The translations under genes were made by a program, and so were the position numbers. A stretch of 20,000 nucleotides of DNA from Psammoneis japonica. Its lineage: Eukaryota. The notes under the pieces were generated by a model. That model made no database searches, was not told the origin of the DNA, and saw nothing but the letters and a program-made list of their open reading frames with translations. Location of the stretch: positions 45,311-65,310 of the forward strand of contig QPGO01000040.1 of the NCBI GenBank assembly GCA_008632985.1, written 5' to 3'. Below, piece by piece: positions 4,421 through 17,926 of this stretch. The first letter of the stretch is position 1, and each line of letters opens with the position of its first letter.

Positions 4421-4489
4421 CGTTGGCTGTTGCTCGAAGTGGTTTTTAGCAAAGATTCAGATGATGCGACGTCGCGTTACGAGTTGTTG

Positions 4490-6870
4490 CGAAATCCAAA
4501 ATTCCAACAAATGGGGATGACGTCACGGAAATCTGATTTGGGCACACGGGATCGCCATCTCCCGCTCGCTCTCCCCAAGCCCAGCCACCACCAGCAGGGA
4601 CGTTCTGCGACCTTTCCACTCTTCCGCTGCTGAAGGCACTTCCGTGCCTCCTTCTGCTGTTCACTTCCGTTCTCAACAGGCTCTCTAACTGTGTGCTTGG
4701 TTCAATCTTTGCCTGAAGCCAGTCCACCTCTCACAACCAGCGCCACAGCCGACCACGCATCGAAGTGCCGTGCTGGCCCTCGAGATTTCCTTCCAGCTTC
4801 AACACAAGTGACAACTTGTCCCAACATGGATTGAAAAAGCAACTGGGCAGCATTTTCTTGGTGAAATTGACGTGTGCTCATGACACTTCTTCAGCGTGCT
4901 GTGTGCTGCTGGCGCCTCTGCTTTTGGCTTGTTCTTGGAGAGCTGCCATCCTCACATTGCTGCCGAGTGAGGGGCTTGTTGATTCTTGATTCCTGTGTGG
5001 CACAATGTCTGTTTCATGTGGGTTGCAGCATGTGCGCCATGTTTCATGGAAGGAGAATGCCAGCTGCACCCTTGTGTCAAGAGATTGCCCAGTGAGTCAG
5101 GTCGCTTCCAGGACCTTCAGTTGGCAACAGATCAGAAATCCCAGTCAATGCCTGTGTCATTCACCAGCGCATGGAGCAACCTTTGTAGCTCCCACCCCAT
5201 CTGCCACACAAAGCACAAACAATGAGCAAACAATGGCATTCAACCACTGCATGAGAGACCTGCTCAGTGTGCATTCCAGAGGTTCAGCCAAACAAGTGGT
5301 CTGTCACATGGCCCACTCTCGTGGCTGGCATCCTTGATCTTGACTTGTTCCAGACTCATGTGCATGAATGTGCAGTCCAAACTTAAGGTGCAATTTTCAA
5401 TGGCCAAAAAACACAATGATCTTCAAATGCATTGTCATGGGCACATGCAGAAAGGTCTCGTGCATGCACTCATGTGTGAGAAACTGAGGATGGACCAAGT
5501 TGTTGATCGCCAAATTGTGCCTTAAGATGAGAGCTCTTTTTTCCGATGAGTGATTTGCAACTGCTTTTGTGTGTTGACAAACAACACATTGATTGTTGTT
5601 CTTGTGCACCAATGTGCTCTCAAATGCGACATGAATGATGTTTCGTCCACTCATTTGAGTGCAAGTTGATCTCAATGGATTGAACAAAACATGCATTGAT
5701 TGACAAGTTTCGGAAGACGCGGAAAGAAATGAAGCTCAGCATGTGCAATGGCATCAACTTCAGACCCTTTTTCACTGTTCCATTGGCATGAACAACTGAC
5801 ACACTTGCACAAGTCCATGTTGTGGAGGAAATGTGCATGAAAATGGAAAAGAAATGTGCTTTCTTGGAGGCAAATTGTGAGTGAATTGAGGCTCAATTGT
5901 TGGTGCTGACAGATTGAATCTTCTTGTGCCATGCTGCAGCCTGCATCAAGCATTTTCATTGTTGTGATGGATGCCACAGACCATGTGAAATGCTGTGGTC
6001 TTCATCATGACATTCAATTTTCCATGAGGTTGAAAAAAGCGGGCTGTCATGGTTGCTGAAAGCCATGGCCGTTTTGGCTGTTTGTTGGCTCGAATTTGCT
6101 CTGTTTGTTTCACTTAAAATCCATTGATGTGATCATTTAAATAAAATGTCAATGATGTTGAACAAAGCATGAAACATTCATTTTTTGTGCAAAATCAGGC
6201 ATGAGCATGCCACCTGAGTCTGGAGCAAGTCTTTTGCCAAAGTGCTGGTGCTGGTCTCCTCGCTCACCCACGATTTTTGACCTCGCACGCTGCATCCCTC
6301 ACAAGCAGATGTTTTTACTGCAGTGTTCATTGGCATCACACTCCAGCATGTGCTGACCTTCCCATGCACAGTGGAGAAGGAGCGGTGCAGTGCCTGTGGA
6401 CAGGCGGCATCAACAGCGCGGTGTCAATCTTGTTTCTTGTGCTTTCTGCTGCGCAGCTGTGGTGCTGGGCTTGCTCCCCCTCCCCCTGCCTCTCTCCACT
6501 GACAAATCATGTGCTTCAAGAGATGAAGTCCATTTTTTCTTTTTTTTCAGCTCTCAGACTGTTGTTCTGCCTTCCCTCTCCCTGCTGCCTCTTTCTTTTG
6601 AGAGCACTCTGCCGCAAAGGAGCTTTGCACGCATGCATGCAAGCACAGCCAGGTGACCTGTGTGTTTCCACTTGGACAAGAATGTTTGTTTTTTCATTCA
6701 CAAGGTGCTGTGTGATGGCCATTCTGGTCCCCGGGTGTGAGCCATCATCCATTCGCTTGGCCAAGAGCGAGAACAGGAAACTTGAGTGACACCTGGAACG
6801 ATTTGGCACGGTGACTCATTCATGTCTGCCCTAATTGTGAATGACGTGAAGGACATCATGACTCACTTAA
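4490..6870 (-). mobile_element. Decayed TE-like/foreign island 1 (TpA- and CpG-depleted) with relic minus-strand coding sequence of unknown family
   Basis: About 10 TpA in ~2.4 kb against normal density in the flanks, the same signature as the transposase-bearing island 2. A minus frame at ~5400-4950 is interrupted only by TGA (likely ex-CGA). No recognisable transposase motif or TIR. Boundaries are approximate. Confidence 0.55.
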
Positions 6871-7324
6871 GGGCGTCGTGACGTGTTTCCGATTCATCAT
6901 TCTTGAAGGTGCGCTCAATCTTCTTGTGAATGACGTTAGAGAGTGTCCCTATTCTTGCGTAAATAATATCAAGAAAATTGAGTGTATGGTTAAGCATAAA
7001 CGATGACACTCTGAGGTCATGATTGGAGTGAAATTCCGTGCACCAAAGTGTCACGCATGAATCCAACCAAATCCAACGCTCGCACCACATCCACGTAGAA
7101 CTCAGTACAAAAGCTACGTAATACTCATGCGGTTGGCGATCCTTTGATCACATTTTTTGCTTTCTCACACCTCAAACTGAGTTGAAACACACGACAACTC
7201 AATCTCCAAGCTATTGTATCGAGACAAGTCCTGCTGAGCAATTCATCGAAACTCTCCAGCGACACTTCCACATACAAACTCAAAAGTGGAGCCTGGAGAA
7301 ATTTCATAATTCATAGAGACAACC

Positions 7325-9126
7325 ATGTGCAACATGACAGCAACATACCGCTCAGGCGAGAAAGAGCCATTGACGTCACTCTCGCAGGAAGAAACGGCTT
7401 TCTCGGCTTGTGCCAACAACAGAACTACTGCATATTCATTAGAGAATAGGAGAGGAAAAGCGCCATACTTGATTGTTACGTTGGTCCCAGCCGTGGCATT
7501 GAGATTGTGCGACTTTAGTTTCAACTATTCCTGGTCCTTTGGGCTCTACTCATGCTTGTCCCTCGTTGTAGCAGCGCTGACCCACATGATTTATCAGCAA
7601 AGAGTGTTGACTCGCTCGCTACTTAGCAAGGTTCCATCCTCTGATAATATCAAGACGGCTACAACAGCTACGATCTCCTCAACAATCAAGAGGATTTCTT
7701 CGAATCAGTGCTGGGAGAGCTTACACGGGAAGACAAGCCATTCCAAGAATCAGCACGTCACTACACTCTCCAATAACGATCCATTTGTTTCTTTGGATGT
7801 CATATCGAAGTTAACATTGTCCGATGTCACGCACTCCTTCTATACGCCAAGGACAAGAATAGCCATCGTTGCGAAGGTACGACGACGAGTGCAGCGTTGG
7901 AGCAAGTCATGACCGCGTTGGACACGTCCGCGTCGAAGTCACGTGGTCCGAATGTGATTGAGCGCAATACGTTGTCCTCGGATGCGTTTGGCGATATGGA
8001 TGCCTTACGGTTCTGTGCCGCGGTTCGAATCTTTGGCGAATGGCGCGTCGTTCGACAAGTTCCTGATGGATACAAGGGCTATGCCGTCGGAATGAACTTG
8101 GGCAAACGAGACATTGTACAAAACCTTGCCAAGATGGAGCATGCGGTACACAACTGGATTGATCACAATAGAAACCGCGACGAAGTCTTGAAAAGCCCGA
8201 GTTTGCGCGATCTTTTAGTGCACGAAGTCAACACCAACGTTCACCATCGGCTTCCGAAGCTCAAGGAAAAGACGGCAGCCATCGGGCTGGTCTGGACGTA
8301 CCGTCAGTTGCAATACCAAACGTGCGTCTACGCCAACATGGTCAATGGAGAATACAACAAAGCTGCGCTGGATGCTTACAAGGAAGTGTACGACAAGTAT
8401 CACGGATGGGCAGTACAAAAGATGTTCAAGTACTCTTTTCAGGGAGCGCCGCCCGAACACGAAATTTATAGGCATATGAACCCTGAGTTGCTACAACAGG
8501 TCACTGACAAAGTGAAGAACGAAAGCACCGTGTTGCTGCGTAGTGCAAGCCTTTCATCGTTACCGGGCTGCAGTTTTGACGACGAGTCGTTCGTGCTTGA
8601 TCAAGAGAGTGATAGCGTCGACTGGGAGATTGTCCCCAACGTCACAGAATCTTCGTTTCTATTTGATTCAGATGACGAGGAAGATTCTGTGGTTAACGAC
8701 AAAGGGAAAGCCGAATCGAAAAAGAATCCTCTTGAAGAGGCTTTGGATCACATTGTTCGAGAAACCAAAAAGTTTGAAAAGAATATGGAGCGTGGATGGA
8801 ATGAATTCGTGTCTTCGATTGTCAGTGTCTTTGATAAAGACCACAAGCAAAAGAGTAGTGGAGCTTCGCATTCTACAAACGAGGAAAGAAGCGATGACAA
8901 AGAAAAATCAGTGGACCAGAGACGCCGAGAGTGTTTTAAGAAGAAGCGTCAAGAACAATCTGTTTCTGAAGATCAAACAGAAGCACTGAATAAAATGATA
9001 TCTACAGAAATGACCAATGGTGCTCACTCGCAAATGAAGCACTATCTCAAAGTCGCTCAGCCTATGATGGATGACTTGCTGAGCATGGTGAAAGAGCTGA
9101 ATATGAACGACCCTACGAAAGTATAG
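7325..9126 (+). CDS. Glycolipid transfer protein (GLTP)-domain protein with N-terminal TM segments, split by an apparent 1-nt frameshift near 7841
   Basis: ORF 7897..9126 has GLTP-like motifs (D-I-x-x-N-x-x-K, TAAIGLVWTYRQLQY, AY-x-EV-x-x-x-YHGWAVQKMF, APP, C-terminal LNMNDP). Its frame is open back to 7777 with no ATG before 7909, and it overlaps ORF 7325..7912, which carries the TM segments. Confidence 0.7.
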
Positions 9127-9683
9127 ATAGAAAGTGATGGATTATGGGTATGTAAATAGTATATATAAACAATAGAATTGCTACGGTTTGCTCATTCATT
9201 CGTCGATGGCCACGTATTTGTCCGTCCTGTTGATGTTGCGTATGCTGAATGTGCTCTATCCTCTCTACGAGTAGAAGTAGAGGTGAGAGGCAAATAATGT
9301 ATGTAGACTCTACCGTAGAGTTGATGGTGGTGGCGTTTCCTTTTAGGTCTCTTGCATGGGTGTTAAATAATCCTGAACAATTATGGAGAAATTTTCTTTT
9401 ACTGTTAAGTAAACAGATTCTCGTTTTTCCGTAAATATTGAGAGATAAATGTCGTCAACGCGAACCCCCATGCGTGTTCGGGGTCCGAATTTCCCACAAA
9501 ACAATAAAGGGACGAAAGCATCGCATCACGCCTCCCACAGTATTCTTCTCGACAAATAATTGAAGCTCTCGAAAAGACGGCACATCTGGTAAGAAGCACG
9601 ACGTGAGCGGTTTCTCTCTTTCTGTGACTTGCCGCTTCTAACGACTTGGTTTGGCCTGTTCGTGGCTACAGTACCCGATTGTA

Positions 9684-11444
9684 ATGAAACGCAGAACTCT
9701 AGAATGCACGGCGTTGGGAACCTGCCTACTTTTTGCTTTTATCTGTGAAGGTGCAAACGCAAAAGAAGATGTAGGAGTAATCGAAGAACCTGATGGTATC
9801 GATGGTTTCGCTACTAACCACGCAAAAAGCTTTGACTTTGGAACAACCAATAGCATTGCTGACGACACGATGGAAACCACGATGAAAGATATCGCCCTAG
9901 CGAGGGACCTTGTTGATGAATCACTGCCCTCCTGGACAGAGAAATATATGGCTGTTGACATTGGAGAATGGATTCAAATGGGACGGAGTATTACCATTGA
10001 TCCCAAAAAAAGGTTCGAAATGGTGGCAATGTCTAGAGATGGAAATCGTATGGTCATTTCAGAGAGTGGCAGATATGGAAAATTTGGGCGGATCCGTGCA
10101 TATCAGTGGAACTCTTTCAAGTCGGACTGGAAGCTAATGGGTCAAATCATCGAGGGAGTATACCACAGTCCTCTAGTCGCCATGTCAGCCGATGGAAAAT
10201 TTATTGTTACTGCTGAGGGACAAGAAGCAGTGCGTGTCTTCAAGTGGCAACGTCAAATGTGGAAACAGGTCGGAGAAAGCATTCCAATGTGGGTGGGTAC
10301 AAGCTACAATAGAGGATACTTTCAGTCAGTGGCAATATCGGATAATGGGCAAACTATTGCAGCTTCAATGTTGAACTATCGCATTAGAGTCCCTGGACAG
10401 GTCAAAGTATTTGACTGGGGAGGATCAAAGTGGAAAGAGAAGGGACACTTGTCCGGAAGCCTAAACAGCCTAGGGACATATGATTCATTCGGGGACAGTA
10501 TCGCAATGTCAGGAGATGGGAATCAATTGGCAATAGGTATTCCCTTTGCTGTAAAATCTGGAAAACGTGTAGGAAAGGCACAAGTCTTGAAGAGGAGGGA
10601 GGGATCATCTTCTTGGGTTCAAAAAGGACAAGACATTTACGGCAAAGGAAAGGACTACGGCTTTGGTAGGTCCATTGCGATATCTCAAAATGGAAGCCGC
10701 GTAATTATTGGTGAAAAGAGACATCGAGAAAGTGGATACGCACGTGTTGTTGAGTGGAACGAATCCAAAAAGCTTTGGAACATGGTAGGAAGCGATATCG
10801 AAGCGGAGTACAATGACGATTTCGGGGAATCAGTTTCAATATCGAGTGATGGAGGGCGAGTAGTTGCGGGCGCCAGAGACTTTGATGAAATGGTTGGCCC
10901 CTCAGGAGCCGGGTTTGCTCGGATGTTTCACTTTGATGGAACCTCATGGCTACAGCTGGGAAATGGATTGTATGGGAGGAAAAAATATAGTGGATTTGGC
11001 GCAGGCGGGGTGTCAATGGCAGGCAGTGGAAATCGTGTGGCAATCTTTTCGGGAAATGCCATTAGTGTTTACAATTTCGTTCCACTCGCCAATGACGCTC
11101 TTGTTGTAGAAATCAACATCAAGCCATTCAAGAAGAACCATGACATCAAAATCAGCAGAGCTCGTAAAGAAGAAACTGTAGGCGTTGCCGTACTTACAAC
11201 CGACGACTTTGACGCCAAAAAGGTAGACGTACAATCCATTCGATTCGGTCCTGATATGGCACAGCCTGTCAGTTGGCTAAAGAAGGATGTCAATTTCGAC
11301 GGTATCAAGGACATTATTCTCGTGTTCAAACTCCACCATACCGGGTTTAGTCCAGGGCGCCAGCAAGCATGCTTGCATGGAGAGCACACATCTGGAGTGG
11401 AATTCAAGGGTTGTCGAATCGTTCGCGTCACCAAGGCAAAGTAG
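9684..11444 (+). CDS. Secreted FG-GAP/integrin-alpha-like beta-propeller protein with C-terminal DxxxDG-loop beta domain, paralog A
   Basis: ATG 9684 is followed by a signal peptide (ALGTCLLFAFICEGANA). About 7 repeats of FGxS(I/V)A(M/I)SxDGxx(L/V)(A/V)(I/V)G ... WxxxG. The C-terminal domain runs VEINIKP...VAVLTTDDFDA...IRFGP...DVNFDGIKD. Intronless. Confidence 0.85.
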   Translation: MKRRTLECTALGTCLLFAFICEGANAKEDVGVIEEPDGIDGFATNHAKSFDFGTTNSIADDTMETTMKDIALARDLVDESLPSWTEKYMAVDIGEWIQMGRSITIDPKKRFEMVAMSRDGNRMVISESGRYGKFGRIRAYQWNSFKSDWKLMGQIIEGVYHSPLVAMSADGKFIVTAEGQEAVRVFKWQRQMWKQVGESIPMWVGTSYNRGYFQSVAISDNGQTIAASMLNYRIRVPGQVKVFDWGGSKWKEKGHLSGSLNSLGTYDSFGDSIAMSGDGNQLAIGIPFAVKSGKRVGKAQVLKRREGSSSWVQKGQDIYGKGKDYGFGRSIAISQNGSRVIIGEKRHRESGYARVVEWNESKKLWNMVGSDIEAEYNDDFGESVSISSDGGRVVAGARDFDEMVGPSGAGFARMFHFDGTSWLQLGNGLYGRKKYSGFGAGGVSMAGSGNRVAIFSGNAISVYNFVPLANDALVVEINIKPFKKNHDIKISRARKEETVGVAVLTTDDFDAKKVDVQSIRFGPDMAQPVSWLKKDVNFDGIKDIILVFKLHHTGFSPGRQQACLHGEHTSGVEFKGCRIVRVTKAK

Positions 11445-11748
11445 TGAGATATTTCGGATACACAAATACCAGGAAACCTTTTAATATATAGACAGTACTT
11501 ACCATTTTTAGGTTGTCGCTGACGAATGCGATGTTGTGCTTCTATATCTTTGAATGTGCCGTGAGCAAGAGTCGAGTTCTTGACTCATTGTTAGAACTCG
11601 TCTCGTTGTGATGTGGAGAGAATAAGTTTACCGCTTTGCGTAACACGTAAACCACACAGAAAGGTGGAACGTAAACGTTTAGAAGCTCTTCACACACCAC
11701 AAGATAAAAATAGCGCCGGATTTCATACGGGAGGTCCACGCAAGCATT

Positions 11749-11895
11749 TTAGTCTTTTGGATGCAACCCAGCATCGCCCAAGTATGGGGATCCAAATGCA
11801 CCCACACGTGCCATGTGTGGATTCTCTTGCATTGCATTTACTTCATTCTCCAACTTGGCAAGCTCCTTGTTGTCGGGGAAAATTTCTTGGGCTCG
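11749..11895 (-). pseudogene. Truncated duplicate of the last ~48 codons of the TM+TPR-like gene
   Basis: Near-identical to 17780-17926 including the stop codon. It is cut off at 11895, where transposon sequence begins. Confidence 0.85.
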
Positions 11896-12870
11896 AAAGC
11901 AACGATGGTGAAGGGTCCGCTTTAAAGAAGTTCAGGGCAGTGACATCATCAGCCGGTGCATCGTCGCGGAGGAAACGCCAAGACGAAGCAACAGTCACTC
12001 CTTTTAACATCAAACCACAAAAAGTCAAAGCCCGAACTGGTTTTAAAGACATTGTTCAGCTGCTGTGTCATGTTCTCACGGTTTGCGATGGAGACGTGGG
12101 AAGCATGACACAACAAACTGGTCCTTTGACGTGGTTTGAGGAATGGTTCCTGTTCTGTGAGTTCATCTGGGGAAGGACTGCGGCAACAATGGAAGCAGCA
12201 GGTGCCATTTTTGAACTCAGCAAGATGTCAAAAATGATTGATGGAAAGCTTGCATCTGTTCTCAAGAACGGCAGAACTGGCCGACTTGTGCTGCACATGA
12301 GGAAGACTTGAAAATGCATGGTGAGAAATGGAATGACAAGCATGGCAAAGATGAGCAACCAGTGCTTTGGGACGACACTGGCAATGATCTGCACACGCCA
12401 TCGGATTCACTCCTGCAGCGAGTGACTTGTTCTGCATGCTGTGGAGGCAACATTGCGAAGGGAGGTGTTTTTGCACAACTTTGTGGTTGGTTGGGGACCA
12501 AGGAGCTACATCCAGGTGCCATGTCTGATTCTGAATGCTTTCAAATGGCTGGTGTTCTTGAAAAACAGAAAAAGTTTCAAGAAGAGGATGGCAGAATCAA
12601 ATTCCTTGATGTGGTGTGGCGACAAGACCAATTTGTGTCACAACCTGAGTTTGCACAGAGTGATCAGAAATTCTCTGCTCGGGAAGTGTTGCACTCTGCA
12701 AGCATTGCAGCTGATTGCTCTGGAAATGAACGAGCAGTCCGTGTTTCTAAATTGTCAGCATGTGTCAAGCGCAGAATGCAAACACACAAGAATCTTGACC
12801 ATTTGTGCAAGGCATGGCTTGCCTGGAGTTGGCAAGCAAATTTTGTGTTTAAACTGGTTCATCAAAAAGT
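11896..12870 (+). pseudogene. DDE_Tnp_4 (ISL2EU/HARBI1-like) transposase pseudogene
   Basis: The motif order matches the family: RTGF; FEEWF (HTH region); WP...ED; VLWDDT (first Asp, 12371); P-S-D-x-x-LQRxT(C)SA(CC)GGNxxKG; PGAMSD; QPxF...F-x-x-x-EVL-x-S-x-x-IA-x-x-(C)-x-x-NERAV (Glu, 12728). Frameshift near 12267. The D(K/R)G second-Asp segment appears deleted near 12610. Confidence 0.8.
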
Positions 12871-13179
12871 TGGTTTATTCAGTTTGTTTCTTGGCAAATC
12901 ACAAAGCGTGTCCGAAATCAAAATGACAATTCTCTGCATGAAGCACCTCATGAGGATGAGGAGTCAATGGCTCCTGCTCTGCTGCAGGGCCTGTTGACAC
13001 AGTGCACCACAGTGCTTGTGATGGAGGCACAGGAAAAAGATTTCATTTGCAGTGCACTTGATGTGTGCCCCAAAATGTTGCAAGCACAGGTGTCCATTCC
13101 AGTCAGAGGGCAGGGACTCAAGTTCAGCAGTGACTCCCACAGAGGGATGTCATGCAACAGATCAGGCTCCAGTTGTCAG

Positions 13180-14055
13180 CAAGAAATTGACAAGTTCAAT
13201 GTTGAAGAAGGTGGTCAATGAAAGTGTTTGGCCACATTGCAAGTTCACAATCTTCGACAGAGAACTGGCGGTGAGAAGAGAGCACATGAAAAGAAGACTT
13301 CTGCAGGAGTCAAGAAGTGCAGCAGCTGCACCGGAGGCACTCTGGGAAGCATGCAAAGAGGTGTTCAGGAAAAAACTCAACCACAAAAGGAGCAATGTGC
13401 AGGATGATGGAAGGAGGAGGATGACAGGCAAGCCAAAATGTGGACGCATTCAAAAGTCATGGACAGGAATGTCTGACAACAAGAGTGTGATTTCCATTGT
13501 TTTCATCAATGCAGCTGCTGCTTTAGAGGGGTCACTGGTTGAGTGCAAAGATTTGGTCCAGGACAGAGTGGACAAAAGCACACACACATGGTTCTTGGAA
13601 ACTGCAGCGCCAACTGTGTCAGGCCAAGTGCAGTTTGGCAGAAGCATGACCAACTTGCTCCAAGAGTGGCTTGCCATTTCTTTGGAGGCCTTTGCTCTGC
13701 TGGTGTGCTTGAGCTGCCATGACAAGGTGGTCAACACATCAGAGAAATTGGGAAAGGACAACAACATTGCAAGGCAAAGAAAGCTGTGGTGGTGGAAGAC
13801 ACTGCACCAGCAAAGTGTGCTGCAATGGCAAAGGGAGAAATGGCTGAAAGGAGCCAAGGATGGAGCAAGGATGAGATCAAGAAGTGCAATGAACTGCACA
13901 AGTGGGTGATGAAAAACCAGGAGGAGAACAAAGGATTCAGTGCATGGCTCAAGGAACAGAGACAAGAGAAGGCAAACTTGCCCAAGGAGGCAGAGAAGAG
14001 CTGCAAAAGGGAGGAGAAGAGGAAGGAGAGAGAGAGGACAGATGGGCAGCATTGA
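13180..14055 (+). pseudogene. Transposon accessory ORF relic (SxEAFALL and GWSxxxIxxxNxL motifs) with one degenerate intron
   Basis: ORF 13052..13909 (VWPHCKF ... FRKKLNHKRSN ... ISLEAFALLV) shifts into ORF 13786..14055 (GWSKDEIKKCNELHKWV). These motifs resemble TE-associated hypothetical proteins of diatoms, from recollection only; the family is not assigned. Candidate intron at 13428-13514. Confidence 0.5.
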
Positions 14056-15287
14056 TGGGAGAGGACCTGCCATTGCTGGCAGCCACTGGCTGCAATGGAG
14101 TGGAAGCAATTGCAGAAGTGGCAACCAACCAAACTGGTGTGTGAGCTCAATTTGTGGCAAGCAACAAAATCCAGAAAACAGAAAAAACAAAAAGGCAAGC
14201 TGTGGCACAATTGACAGTCGAGAAATGTGGCCATTGCAAAGCTGTTGCACATTTAAAGCAGCAGCGCAAATGCATGAAATGCCAAAGGATGATGCAGGCA
14301 AGGATGGTGGATCTCAAGTGGCAAAACAGGTGATGAAGAAACAATGAGCAGCAAATGTCAACAAGGGTTGAGAGCAAAATTGTGGGCAAACATGTTCGCA
14401 CTGCAAAGTGGAGTGAAATTCAGGTTTTAGAAGCTCACGAACTCAATCAGTCACATGTTTTTTTTTGTGCACTCGCCTTCTGATTTTTGAAACAATCAAA
14501 TTTGAAGGAATTCAATGTGCCAAACTGTGCAGAAAACCAGTCTCACACATGATGGATTGCTCATCACTGGGGCTGGAACATGCGGGAGACGGGTTTCAGC
14601 CCCAGGTGGGACTCCGTGTGACATTTGCCCCGCAGAATTCTGTGTGCAAGCTCTGCAGTTCATGCTCTGGCCAATGGACACATTTGTCTTCGACATGAAA
14701 TGAACGACCAAGTTTGTGGCACACATGTCCCTGTTCCTGCTTGAAGTTTTGGACAGCCCGCCTGCCCCGCGCCATGCTCAAGACATTTGAGAATGGTGCA
14801 GAAGAAAAAAATGTCAAAAGTTGTTGAATGGATCGCCCAATGATTGTGCCGCAAAACAGCGCAAAATGTCACCAAAATCACATGGAAATGTGCGTGCGCA
14901 ACATGCGATGCGATTCAAAAAACTGTCGATGTCACAGTTCAGCAGCACGAGGTCCCACCTGGACCTGGAACATGTCAGGAGGGTTGTGGCCACAGTGCAT
15001 GAAGAGCACTCTGCTGACTTGCTCGCAGCGGGCCACACATTGTGGTTGGTTGTGGCAGTGTCAAGAGATGTGACAACCGTGCTGCAAGGACAAAACAAGT
15101 GCTGCCTGGAGCCCTTGCCCTTGTCTGGAGAGATGATGGCCGATGTTGTGTTTTGACATCATTGTGTGTGGATGACAATGAAGCTTGAGATGGCTTGGAA
15201 ACAGATCAGGAGACAAGGTTTTTTTTATGATGGTGACAACAATGCCCAGCGCGATGATGACACCAAAGACACCGATCTGAAATCACG

Positions 15288-15346
15288 AGCTTTTTTTTTA
15301 GCAGAATGTGAGCTAAAAAAGTGGGGGATGACCCCCCCCCCCTTAA
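15288..15346. repeat. Putative transposon terminus: two short inverted repeats and a C-run abutting TTAA
   Basis: ttttttagc (15294-15302) and gctaaaaaa (15312-15320) form an inverted pair. Then ggggg-atga-ccccc, C11 ending at 15342, and TTAA at 15343-15346. This coincides with the compositional boundary. Confidence 0.55.
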
Positions 15347-15364: not shown

Positions 15365-17926
15365 GCGTTAAATAATGCAGCATCTTAGTGAACAATTAAG
15401 AGGAAACTTTCTTTGGTGTTAAGTAGACAGATCCTTGCTTTCTCCCATAAATGTTGAGAAATAATTATTAGACCATGTCGTCAACGCGAACCCCGAGAAT
15501 TCTGACATGCGAATCATCTCCCACAAAACCAAAAAAAAGGAAAAACATCGCGTCAACAGAGCAGCACTACACAACCTCGTCAACTGGAAATCACAGCGCC
15601 ATAAAATATTCGTCTCTATACAAATCGAAACTCTCGAAAAGACGGCAAATCTGGTAAGAAGCAGGACGTGAGCGGTTGTCTCTTTCTGTGGCTTGCCGCT
15701 TCTAACGACTTGGTTGGACCTTTTCGTCAATGTGGCTACAGCACCAGATAATAATGACACGCAGTACTCTAGAGTACACGGCGTTAGGAGCCTTGATACT
15801 TTTTGCTTTTATCGGTGTAGGTGTAAACGCAAAAGAAAATGTAGGAGTGGCTGAAGATCCTGTCGTGAGAAATAGTTTCGACAGTTTCGCTACTAGCCAC
15901 GCAAAAAGGTTTGACATTGGAACGACCACCAGAATTTCTGACGACACAGTGGACTCCACGAGAAGAAATCTCGGGGACTCTGTTGATGAATCACTGCCTT
16001 CCTCGACAGAGAAATCTACTGCTGTCGACATTGGAGAATGGATTCAAATGGGACGGAGTATTACTACCACACATCCCAAAAAATGGTTCGGAATGATGGC
16101 AATGTCTAGAGATGGCAATCGTATGGCCATTTCAGAGAGTGTCAAAAATGCAAAAATTGGGCGAATCCGTGCATATCAGTGGAACTCTTTCAAGTCGGAC
16201 TGGAAGCTAATGGGTCAAATCATAGAGGGAGAATATAAAAGCCGTCGACCCATGCCTCTACCGGCAGTGGCAATGTCAGCTAATGGAAAATATCTTGTTA
16301 CTGCCGAGGGACTAGAAGTAGTGCGTGTCTTCAAGTGGCAAAGTCAAATGTGGAAACAGGTCGGAGAAAGCATTCCAAGTTGGGTGAGCAACCATAGAGA
16401 TTTCTTCCGGTCAGTAGCAATATCAGATGATGGACAAACTATTGTGGCTTTAATTTCTTTCGACGCCGCTAGAAACCCTGGACAAGTCAAATTGTTTGAC
16501 TGGAGTGGATCCGAATGGAAAGAAAGGGGATCCTTGTTGGAGAGTTTAGACAGCCGCGAGGACATTGGTTTCAGCATCGCAATGTCAGGAGATGGGAATC
16601 AATTGGCAATAGGTATTCCCTTAGCTGTAAAATCTGGAAGAAATGTAGGCAAGGCACAAGTCTTCAAGAGGAGGAAGGGATCATCTTCTTGGGTTCAGAA
16701 AGGACAAGACATTTATGGCAAAGGGAAGGACTACGGCTTTGGTTTATCAATAGCGATATCTCAAAATGGAAGCCGCGTAGTTATTGGTGATCTGAGTGGG
16801 TACGCACGTGTTGTCGAGTGGAACGAGTCCACGAATCATTGGAACATGGTAGGAAATGGTATCGAAGCGGAGTACAAAGATGAATTCGGAGGATCTGTTT
16901 CTATATCGAGTGATGGAGGGCGAGTGGTTGCGGGCGCCAGTGACTTTTATGGAGTGGTTGGCCCCTCAGGAGCCGGGTTTGCTCGGATGTTTCACTTTGA
17001 TGGAACCTCCTGGCTACAGCTGGGAAATGGATTGTACGGGAGGGAAAAATATAGTGGATTTGGCGCAGGCGGGGTGTCAATGGCAGGGAGTGGAAACCGC
17101 GTGGCGATCTTTTCGGGAAATGCCATTAGTGTTTACAATTTTGTTCCACTCGCCAATGACGCTCTTGCTGTAGAAATCAACATCAAGCCATTTAAGAAGA
17201 ACCATGACATCAAAATCAGCAGAGCTCGAAAAGAAGAAACAGTAGGCATTGCCGTACTCACAACCGACAACTTTGACGCCAAAAAAGTAGACGTACAATC
17301 CATTCGATTCGGCCCTGATATGGCACAGCCTGTCAGTTGGCTAAAGAAGGATGTCAATTTCGACGGTATCAAGGACATTATTCTTGTATTCAAACTCCAT
17401 CATACCGGGTTTAGTCCAGGGCGCCAGCAAGCATGCTTGCATGGAGAGCACACATCTGGAGTGCAATTCAGAGGTTGTCGAATCGTTCGCGTCACCAAGG
17501 CAAAGTAGTGAGACATTTCGGAAACGAGAATACCAGGAAAACTTTTAATATTATATACAGTACTTACCATTTAGACATGCACCGAGCAGCAAAGAAAGTT
17601 GTCGCTGACGAATGCGATGTTGTGAAAGAGGCGAGTTCTTGACTCTTCGACAGAACTCGTCTCGGTGTGATATGGAGAGAATATACCGCTTTTCGTAAAA
17701 CGTTTCAGAAGCTCTTCAAAACTCCTCGAGGTTAAACTTGGGTCGTAGGATTTGATACGTGAGGTCCAAGCAAGCATTTTTAGTCTTTTGGATGCAACCC
17801 GGCATCGCCCAAGTATGGGGATCCAAATGCACCCACACGTGCCATGTGAGGATTCTCTTGCATTGCATTCACTTCATTCTCCAACTTGGCAAGCTCCTTG
17901 TTATCGGGGAAAATTTCTTGGGCTCG
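15365..17926 (+). repeat. Tandem segmental duplication, copy 2 (continuous with the intact downstream gene)
   Basis: Homologous to 9360-11895 and continues without a break into the full TPR-like gene. Confidence 0.9.
15754..17508 (+). CDS. Secreted FG-GAP-like beta-propeller protein, paralog B
   Basis: Same architecture as 9684..11444. ATG 15754 is positionally homologous to ATG 9684, and an in-frame upstream ATG at 15730 is possible. Signal peptide ALGALILFAFIGVGVNA. Confidence 0.85.
   Translation: MTRSTLEYTALGALILFAFIGVGVNAKENVGVAEDPVVRNSFDSFATSHAKRFDIGTTTRISDDTVDSTRRNLGDSVDESLPSSTEKSTAVDIGEWIQMGRSITTTHPKKWFGMMAMSRDGNRMAISESVKNAKIGRIRAYQWNSFKSDWKLMGQIIEGEYKSRRPMPLPAVAMSANGKYLVTAEGLEVVRVFKWQSQMWKQVGESIPSWVSNHRDFFRSVAISDDGQTIVALISFDAARNPGQVKLFDWSGSEWKERGSLLESLDSREDIGFSIAMSGDGNQLAIGIPLAVKSGRNVGKAQVFKRRKGSSSWVQKGQDIYGKGKDYGFGLSIAISQNGSRVVIGDLSGYARVVEWNESTNHWNMVGNGIEAEYKDEFGGSVSISSDGGRVVAGASDFYGVVGPSGAGFARMFHFDGTSWLQLGNGLYGREKYSGFGAGGVSMAGSGNRVAIFSGNAISVYNFVPLANDALAVEINIKPFKKNHDIKISRARKEETVGIAVLTTDNFDAKKVDVQSIRFGPDMAQPVSWLKKDVNFDGIKDIILVFKLHHTGFSPGRQQACLHGEHTSGVQFRGCRIVRVTKAK

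Follow-up and report, generated by a model that had tools for sequence, protein, structure and literature searches.

Here we report that two blocks in a 20,000-nucleotide stretch of the Psammoneis japonica genome (GenBank assembly GCA_008632985.1, contig QPGO01000040.1, positions 45,311 to 65,310 of the forward strand) have lost almost all of their TpA dinucleotides, and that the survival of a TpA depends on the bases that flank it. The whole stretch is called the window below, and positions are counted from its first letter. The blocks lie at 4480–6831 (block 1) and 11896–15345 (block 2), 5802 bp together, and both are dead mobile or repeat DNA; block 2 contains a dead Harbinger/PIF-type DNA transposon and further repeat DNA. 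The probable cause is a process confined to these blocks that acted on the dead elements after their insertion and converted TpA to TpG or CpA in a flank-dependent manner. TpA hypermutation itself has already been described in one preprint, on Bigelowiella natans; what is new here is the flank fingerprint.

Extent, composition and borders of the TpA-poor blocks

The ratio of observed to expected TpA (O/E) is 0.05 in block 1, which retains 8 TpA, and 0.06 in block 2, which retains 14, so that 22 are seen in total against 244–272 expected. In 500-bp bins inside the blocks the ratio ranges from 0.00 to 0.12, with a G+C content of ∼47% and almost double the TG+CA, while three flanking stretches have TA O/E values of 0.57–0.62. 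The loss is specific to TpA, as AT (O/E 0.86), AA (1.25) and TT (1.21) all remain near their values outside the blocks. CpG is also reduced (O/E 0.39 in block 1 and 0.34 in block 2), and TG and CA are raised to 1.7–1.8. When a strict 5532-bp subset of the blocks was compared with the flanks, the gain of TG+CA (411.6) matched the combined loss of TA and CG (413.2); together with the unchanged AA, TT and AT, this means that nearly all of the losses were transitions.

Although the limits of block 1 were set by listing every TA and CG, those of block 2 could be fixed without use of its TA content, because the block sits between two tandem gene units, unit A (9374–11895) and unit B (15389–17926). 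These units form a 2.4-kb tandem duplication with 83.5% identity, and each carries an FG-GAP repeat gene on the plus strand (9642–11444 and 15706–17508). The left border is exact: homology between the units stops at 11895 and 17926, respectively, and erasure begins at 11896. The units also provide an internal control, since they are not TA-erased. Within their aligned parts (9541–11895 and 15607–17926) 70 TA are kept in both copies, the TA that differ between them are replaced by diverse products (TG or CA at 27 of 60), and the final 90 aligned bases of unit A before block 2 contain no change from TA to TG or CA relative to unit B. The process is thus confined, with normal TA content kept in the host genes that flank the blocks and in the tandem units, and inside the blocks the erasure is alike in coding and non-coding parts and on both strands.

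TA is erased right up to block edges at which CpG is mostly kept. The CG O/E is 0.89 at 11896–12130, where TA occurs only as TTAA, 0.65 at 4480–4960 and 0.54 at 14571–15345, with only TTAA-type sites left at the edges, compared with 0.19–0.28 in the block cores. This suggests that TA erasure and CpG decay are two separable processes.

Two further features were seen at the borders of block 2. The final 96 bases before the left junction are ∼97% identical between units A and B, compared with 83.5% overall, perhaps through gene conversion. The right end of the block (15285–15342) contains homopolymer runs (T9, A6 and C12) just ahead of the last TTAA, and may represent a junction or terminal structure of the inserted DNA.

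The loss was acquired, and its direction is visible at conserved codons

The transposase remnant in block 2 (11946–12859, plus strand) is DDE_Tnp_4-like and was recognised from Pfam, from homologues and by tblastn. The open reading frame (ORF) at 12242–12997 has a weak Pfam match to DDE_Tnp_4 (PIF/Harbinger; E 0.0014) and 24 homologues with E values from 1e-22 to 8e-65. A tblastn search with six of the transposase homologues recovered the remnant in two frames, with a frameshift near 12263, and in the alignment it lacks the block that corresponds to the conserved DRGYRSTRAA motif of the homologues.

As a comparison set we used 53 metagenomic loci that encode relatives of this transposase. None of the 53 is TA-poor (whole-locus TA O/E 0.46–0.86, lowest 600-bp window 0.21), which indicates that the blocks acquired their TA loss rather than inherited it. 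Some of these relatives (P0012 and P0018, alignment A1) show CpG-type decay at conserved columns, with Arg replaced by Cys, His or Trp, but have kept their tyrosines; the transposon family can therefore decay without TpA erasure in other organisms.

Conserved codons of the remnant record the direction of change. All seven Tyr-majority columns in the C-terminal part of the alignment are now Cys (six) or His (one), and these two residues are the single-transition products of TAY codons (here and below, R stands for A or G and Y for C or T). One Arg column, without variation in all 24 homologues, carries Cys in the remnant through a CpG transition. Where 18 of 24 relatives have TAA as stop codon, the remnant has CAA (12863–12865), and its stop is read through.

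Surviving TpA sites are strongly biased in context

The 22 surviving TpA fall into 16 YTAR sites, six half-sites and no RTAY site. Ten are TTAA, found as CTTAAG at 5383–5386, 5522–5525 and 15343–15346 (the right edge of block 2), as CTTAAA at 6114–6117, as TTTAAA at 6137–6140, 11922–11925, 12043–12046, 12849–12852 and 14253–14256, and once as TTTAAC (12004–12007), the sole TTAA that is not of the form YTTAAR. The other YTAR survivors are three CTAA (4685–4688, 12747–12750 and 15313–15316) and three TTAG (13523–13526, 14427–14430 and 15298–15301). The half-sites comprise one GTAG (5185–5188), one ATAA (6141–6144), one TTAC (6315–6318), one CTAC (12506–12509) and two TTAT (12875–12878 and 15225–15228). 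The two blocks agree, with YTAR at 5 of 8 survivors in block 1 and 11 of 14 in block 2, and RTAY at none in either. An initial annotation of the sequence had listed exactly these six half-sites and no RTAY survivor; its totals of ∼24 survivors and ∼18 YTAR were slightly high, and of its YTAR split (∼11 TTAA, 4 CTAA and 3 TTAG) the TTAG count stands and the other two come down to 10 and 3.

We compared the survivors with three null expectations. The rest of the window contains 573 TA, of which 81 are YTAR and 196 RTAY; against this background the strict set of 15 survivors gave Fisher P values of 8e-6 for the excess of YTAR and 0.004 for the absence of RTAY. The loci of 51 metagenomic relatives, remaining after L002 and L031 were dropped from the 53 as near-duplicates of L001 and L030, contain 5473 TA in 116,798 bases (YTAR 16.1%, RTAY 32.0%, TTAA 5.2%), from which the binomial probability of at least 16 YTAR among 22 sites is 6e-9 and that of no RTAY among 22 is 2e-4. 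The contexts of TG and CA inside the blocks, which give the expectation for random back-mutation, predict 21% YTAR, 26% RTAY and 7.6% TTAA, and the strict set departs from all three (YTAR 10/15, P 2e-4; RTAY 0/15, P 0.011; TTAA 6/15, P 5e-4). As all three nulls reject chance, the context bias of the survivors is real.

A graded flank rule

Unless stated otherwise, expected counts for the 5802 bp were scaled from the metagenomic relatives. On this basis 10 TTAA are seen against 14.0 expected (6.8 from the window flanks), 6 CTAA/TTAG against 21.6, 3 ATAA/TTAT against 45.5, 1 GTAA/TTAC against 34.4 and 2 CTAC/GTAG against 31.2, whereas CTAG (0 against 8.1, with a range of expectations of 6.5–8.1) and the whole RTAY class (0 against ∼87) have vanished. 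Survival relative to the relatives accordingly falls from ∼0.71 for TTAA through 0.28 (CTAA/TTAG), 0.07 (ATAA/TTAT) and 0.03 (GTAA/TTAC) to zero for both CTAG and RTAY. AT-richness as such is not protective: read strand by strand, TAAT is seen 0 times against 37.6 expected, TATA 0 against 27.7 and TATT 2 against 57.6, and ATAT is absent against 23.2 expected from the window flanks.

These counts were fitted with a Poisson model in which each strand contributes a hazard fixed by the base 3′ of its adenine. The fitted hazards per strand are 0.16 for TAA, 1.22 for TAG and 2.78 for TAY (TAC 2.67, TAT 2.88). A model of uniform depletion is rejected (likelihood-ratio test (LRT) 39.7, P 3e-10), in agreement with the initial proposal that depletion in such islands depends on context. 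That proposal had also named 5′-TAY-3′ as the preferred substrate; the gradient that it implied, from RTAY through half-sites to YTAR, is borne out by the counts, but the equal sparing of all YTAR sites is not. A purine/pyrimidine rule predicts that CTAG should be as safe as TTAA, and with no CTAG and ten TTAA among the survivors its wording is too coarse. The graded model, in which TAA is hit less than TAG and TAG less than TAY, fits better than the purine/pyrimidine model under two nulls (LRT P 0.004 and 6e-5), and the YTAR survivors contain more TTAA than expected (Fisher P 0.014 and 0.001).

The base beyond the flanking A appears to matter as well. Nine of the 10 surviving TTAA are YTTAAR (TTTAAA five times, CTTAAG three times and CTTAAA once; 4/4 in block 1 and 5/6 in block 2), whereas the share among TTAA of the relatives is 26%. 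A better fit is obtained when AR and AY are treated as separate flanks (LRT 25.8, P 4e-7), with the hazard of TAAR at or below zero and that of TAAY ∼2, like other flanks. With TAAR on one strand, survival is 0.45 if TAG lies opposite and 0.10 if TAY does, compared with 0.03 for TAG paired with TAY and 0 for TAY on both strands when neither strand is TAAR, a series consistent with hazards that add strand by strand.

The deciding flank is probably 3′ of the mutated adenine

The survivors alone cannot separate a rule in which the mutated A is followed by a base other than A from its mirror image, in which the T of the mutated A follows a base other than T. Ancestral sites at which the two predict different products are informative, and three of three fit the 3′-flank model. 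The Tyr codons at 12287 and 12428, both preceded by CT (T-TAT), are now TGT and not CAT, and the transposase stop TAA, preceded by AT, has become CAA and not TGA, the opposite strand reading TAAT. Product classes point the same way: YTGY+RCAR has gained 131 and RTGR+YCAY 71, where the 3′-flank model predicts gains of ∼165 and ∼50, respectively, and the mirror model the reverse. From these sequence comparisons the deciding flank is likely to be the base 3′ of the mutated adenine, and the orientation put forward at the outset, with an A before a pyrimidine as the target, agrees with both the informative sites and the 131 to 71 contrast.

Content and copy status of the blocks

Beyond the transposase remnant, the blocks have yielded few matches. 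Protein homology was not found for block 1, a blastn comparison of block 1 with block 2 revealed no similarity, and a tblastx search of block 1 and the rest of block 2 against the 53 relatives' loci gave one weak hit group only (L045). Block 2 holds two long open frames, at 13022–13909 on the plus strand (P0025) and 13450–14313 on the minus strand, without homologues or Pfam matches; for P0025, no homologue was present among 1034 candidates. With TAA and TAG erased and TGA the sole stop codon left, chance is expected to produce long frames of this kind, and annotation could mistake them for genes.

Contigs of sequencing run X1 match 11842–14626 with 0 differences, and among 40 listed differences between the run X1 contigs and the window at least one base lies inside a block. 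Run X1, a DNA run, is the only public run that contains the stretch and probably derives from the assembly's own sample, so this match is not independent proof; no RNA run containing the stretch was listed. Summed contig depth is 1100–1375 on 5337–6670, a part of block 1 that is multi-copy in the read set, against ∼50 on neighbouring genes, and spans 1100 to 42000 over 5337–6670 and 13341–15341; the high depth in both blocks is in keeping with multi-copy repeats, although it does not give a copy number. At 14008–15341 and 5337–6670, depth reaches up to 42000 against ∼50 and there are many internal joints of 50–250 bases, so that these parts look like a short, highly repeated element or satellite.

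Comparison with known mutators

Repeat-induced point mutation (RIP) converts C to T, mainly at CpA, and thereby creates TpA. Like the process described here, RIP in Neurospora and other fungi is a transition hypermutation of repeats in a dinucleotide context that kills transposons. The likeness fails on direction, as the blocks have lost TpA and gained G:C pairs, CpA and TpG, the opposite of RIP. With regard to a duplication trigger, the 2.4-kb tandem units, now 83.5% identical, are unmutated, and each block includes parts that occur as multiple copies in the read set.

ADAR enzymes, which are known only from animals, convert A to I in double-stranded RNA and prefer a 5′ U and a 3′ G. The 5′ U preference resembles the T of TpA, but here the hazard of TAG (1.2) is below that of TAY (2.8), and the element in block 2 is a DNA transposon, which does not pass through an RNA copy. 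ADAT2/ADAT3 and TadA also carry out A-to-I editing of polynucleotides, and in their tRNA substrate U precedes the target A, with C after it in bacterial tRNA-Arg; this U-A-C context resembles the best substrate here, T-A-Y. In eukaryotes, ADAT2/3 accepts tRNAs in which A34 is followed by A, G or C, and such tolerance would not explain why TAA is refractory.

As DNA-acting enzymes, the TadA-derived adenine base editors (ABEs) ABE7.10, ABEmax and ABE8e are described in passages of the published work as accepting adenine in broad contexts, a rice study reports ABEs to be without obvious context preference, and the amphioxus ADAT2 (BjADAT2), a natural enzyme shown to deaminate DNA adenine, is said there to prefer 5′-GAA-3′. 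The suggestion in the initial annotation that TadA-derived editors favour TA finds no support in these passages. For a TadA- or ADAT2-type agent, the DNA flank preference given there does not match T-A-[not A], a mismatch that leaves an unstudied orthologue unaffected.

The closest parallel is in B. natans, for which the main text of a preprint describes hypermutation in integrated giant-virus and virophage DNA (Mettrop et al., bioRxiv 10.64898/2026.01.13.699255). Mutation-accumulation lines yielded 231 mutations in two integrated viral regions, of which 230 were A>G or T>C, all at TpA; DDE endonuclease and reverse-transcriptase domains were enriched among the coding sequences low in TpA, and an ADAT2-like adenine deaminase acting on DNA was proposed (bioRxiv 10.64898/2026.01.13.699255). 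Hypermutation of this type is characterised by a mutation rate ∼1000-fold higher and measurable in living lines. As far as that text goes, the two systems share the restriction to TpA, the products TpG and CpA, and the confinement to foreign or mobile DNA. They differ in organism, in the near saturation seen here (TA O/E 0.05, compared with a Rho of 0.45 for the B. natans nucleocytoplasmic large DNA virus (NCLDV) region) and in the CpG decay that accompanies erasure here. The main text of the preprint contains no flank analysis beyond the dinucleotide (the words “context”, “trinucleotide” and “tetranucleotide” are absent), and our literature search found no report of a TpA-erasure scar in diatoms or other algae besides this preprint.

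Alternative explanations

Some viruses and retroelements are known to avoid UpA and CpG, and a TA-poor composition that was inherited or selected, for instance through UpA avoidance in the RNA of the element, would need no mutational scar at all. We regard this as extremely improbable in view of the absence of TA-poor loci among the relatives, the destruction of the coding frame (Tyr and Arg replaced, a frameshift, a deletion and a read-through stop) and the equal effect on coding and non-coding parts and on both strands. Nor is it at all probable that the surviving TpA are new ones, made by later ordinary mutation and uninformative in context: the blocks abound in TG and CA, which a G>A or C>T change would turn into TA, but the contexts of these dinucleotides mispredict the strict survivors in every class given above, and three of the TTAA stand at F-K or F-N codon junctions common to the homologues. 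Synthesis by an error-prone polymerase in silenced chromatin, such as a mutator of the Pol-eta type with a WA motif (W being A or T) recruited by T:G repair after decay of 5-methylcytosine, would account for TA erasure and CpG decay in the same blocks, and Pol eta does favour WA motifs and A>G changes. This explanation appears improbable given that the products are transitions (7/7 Tyr to Cys or His, with a TG+CA gain that covers the whole TA+CG loss), that AA and TT are not depleted, that TA is erased to block edges where CpG is mostly kept, as at 11896–12130, and that 230 of the 231 B. natans mutations in the preprint's main text were transitions.

Two further alternatives accept a mutator but explain the survivors differently. 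Under a plain purine/pyrimidine rule, the A of 5′-TAY-3′ is a substrate, that of TAR is not, and all YTAR are spared equally. The class order is as predicted (RTAY 0, half-sites 6, YTAR 16) and this simple rule is enough to account for most of the misfit seen with the uniform model (LRT 39.7); we nevertheless consider it unlikely in view of the missing CTAG (0 against 6.5–8.1), the ten TTAA (against 6.8–14) and their excess among YTAR survivors, and the better fit of the graded model. Alternatively, a flank-blind mutator may have been kept from certain sites by a protein bound to the palindrome YTTAAR or by a methyltransferase that marks its adenine. Nine of the 10 TTAA are indeed palindrome-type hexamers, in a number at or above expectation (9 against 1.3–3.6), but non-palindromic sites with one TAAR strand also survive better (0.45 and 0.10, compared with 0.03 and 0), additive hazards fit better and TAG flanks are intermediate. 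We know of no factor that shields YTTAAR in this way, and find the idea hard to credit.

We favour flank-dependent mutation of TpA itself, against which several observations must be weighed. There are only 22 survivors, from one window, and the expected counts derive from proxies (flanking genes and distant relatives) rather than true ancestors. The refinement to TAAR and YTTAAR is post hoc, having been seen in these same data at few sites, and the nine YTTAAR exceed the 1.3–3.6 predicted by two proxies; as they lie above both baselines, the baselines must be imperfect. In the analysis of tetranucleotide products the fit does not separate the two orientations (r 0.21 for the 3′-flank model and 0.04 for its mirror), sites with a single A flank do not show the product enrichment that either model calls for, and the gains expected at TTG/CAA and TGA/TCA were not found under either orientation, which indicates that the flanking genes are a poor proxy for ancestral repeats. 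In the N-terminal part of the transposase, three columns have Y in 40% or more of the homologues, and the window reads F, W and F there; two of these columns are ambiguous, as F or W also occurs among the homologues, but the third, which is Y in nine of ten homologues, is encoded as Phe (TTT) and would require a transversion if Tyr were ancestral. Finally, the GAA preference of BjADAT2, in the passages cited the only natural ADAT2 shown to deaminate DNA adenine, is the opposite of the fingerprint.

Proposed mechanism and implications

The erasure itself, where it starts and stops, the direction of change in conserved codons and the dependence on flanks are shown by the comparisons above. In the mechanism that we propose, dead mobile or repeat DNA would be mutated after insertion by A:T to G:C transitions at TpA, giving TpG or CpA, with ordinary decay of CpG to TpG or CpA in parallel. 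With the process almost at saturation, the few remaining TpA show which flanks it prefers. At any TpA the adenines of the two strands may be mutated independently, each at a rate set mainly by the 3′ base, fast before C or T, at about half that rate before G and almost never before A, above all in TAAR. A site would then survive only when both strands are refractory, so that TTAA, especially as YTTAAR (TTTAAA and CTTAAG), stays, RTAY becomes extinct and CTAG is lost. The agent may flip or bind an adenine that requires T on its 5′ side and act poorly when a purine run follows, the presumed lesion being hypoxanthine, which is read as G.

Of the possible chemistries, we tentatively regard as the likeliest, at somewhat less than even odds, that a polynucleotide deaminase converts adenine in DNA to hypoxanthine, depends on a T at −1 and does not accept a purine run at +1/+2. 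More speculative, and on balance doubtful, is the wider view that a eukaryotic genome-defence enzyme deaminates adenine in silenced mobile DNA (T at −1 obligatory, +1 C or T preferred to G and strongly to A, YTTAAR fully refractory), and that a system of this kind is at work in algal lineages as far apart as the rhizarian B. natans and this genome.

On a practical level, annotators of such blocks should be aware that long false ORFs, left with TGA as the only stop, and apparent Tyr-to-Cys or Tyr-to-His “variants” are accounted for by TpA erasure. The flank preference of a mutator is the most direct clue to its enzyme, and it was through flank preference that APOBEC and AID were linked to their genomic scars. 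The rule reported here, T-A before anything except a purine run, can be tested on oligonucleotides against candidate deaminases and on the 231 B. natans mutations, and can be used for scanning other genomes; it already argues against the simplest candidate, an ADAT2 that acts like the amphioxus enzyme. If the wider view is correct, such an “A-type RIP” would be an old and widespread defence, and its enzyme could be sought by a match to the fingerprint.

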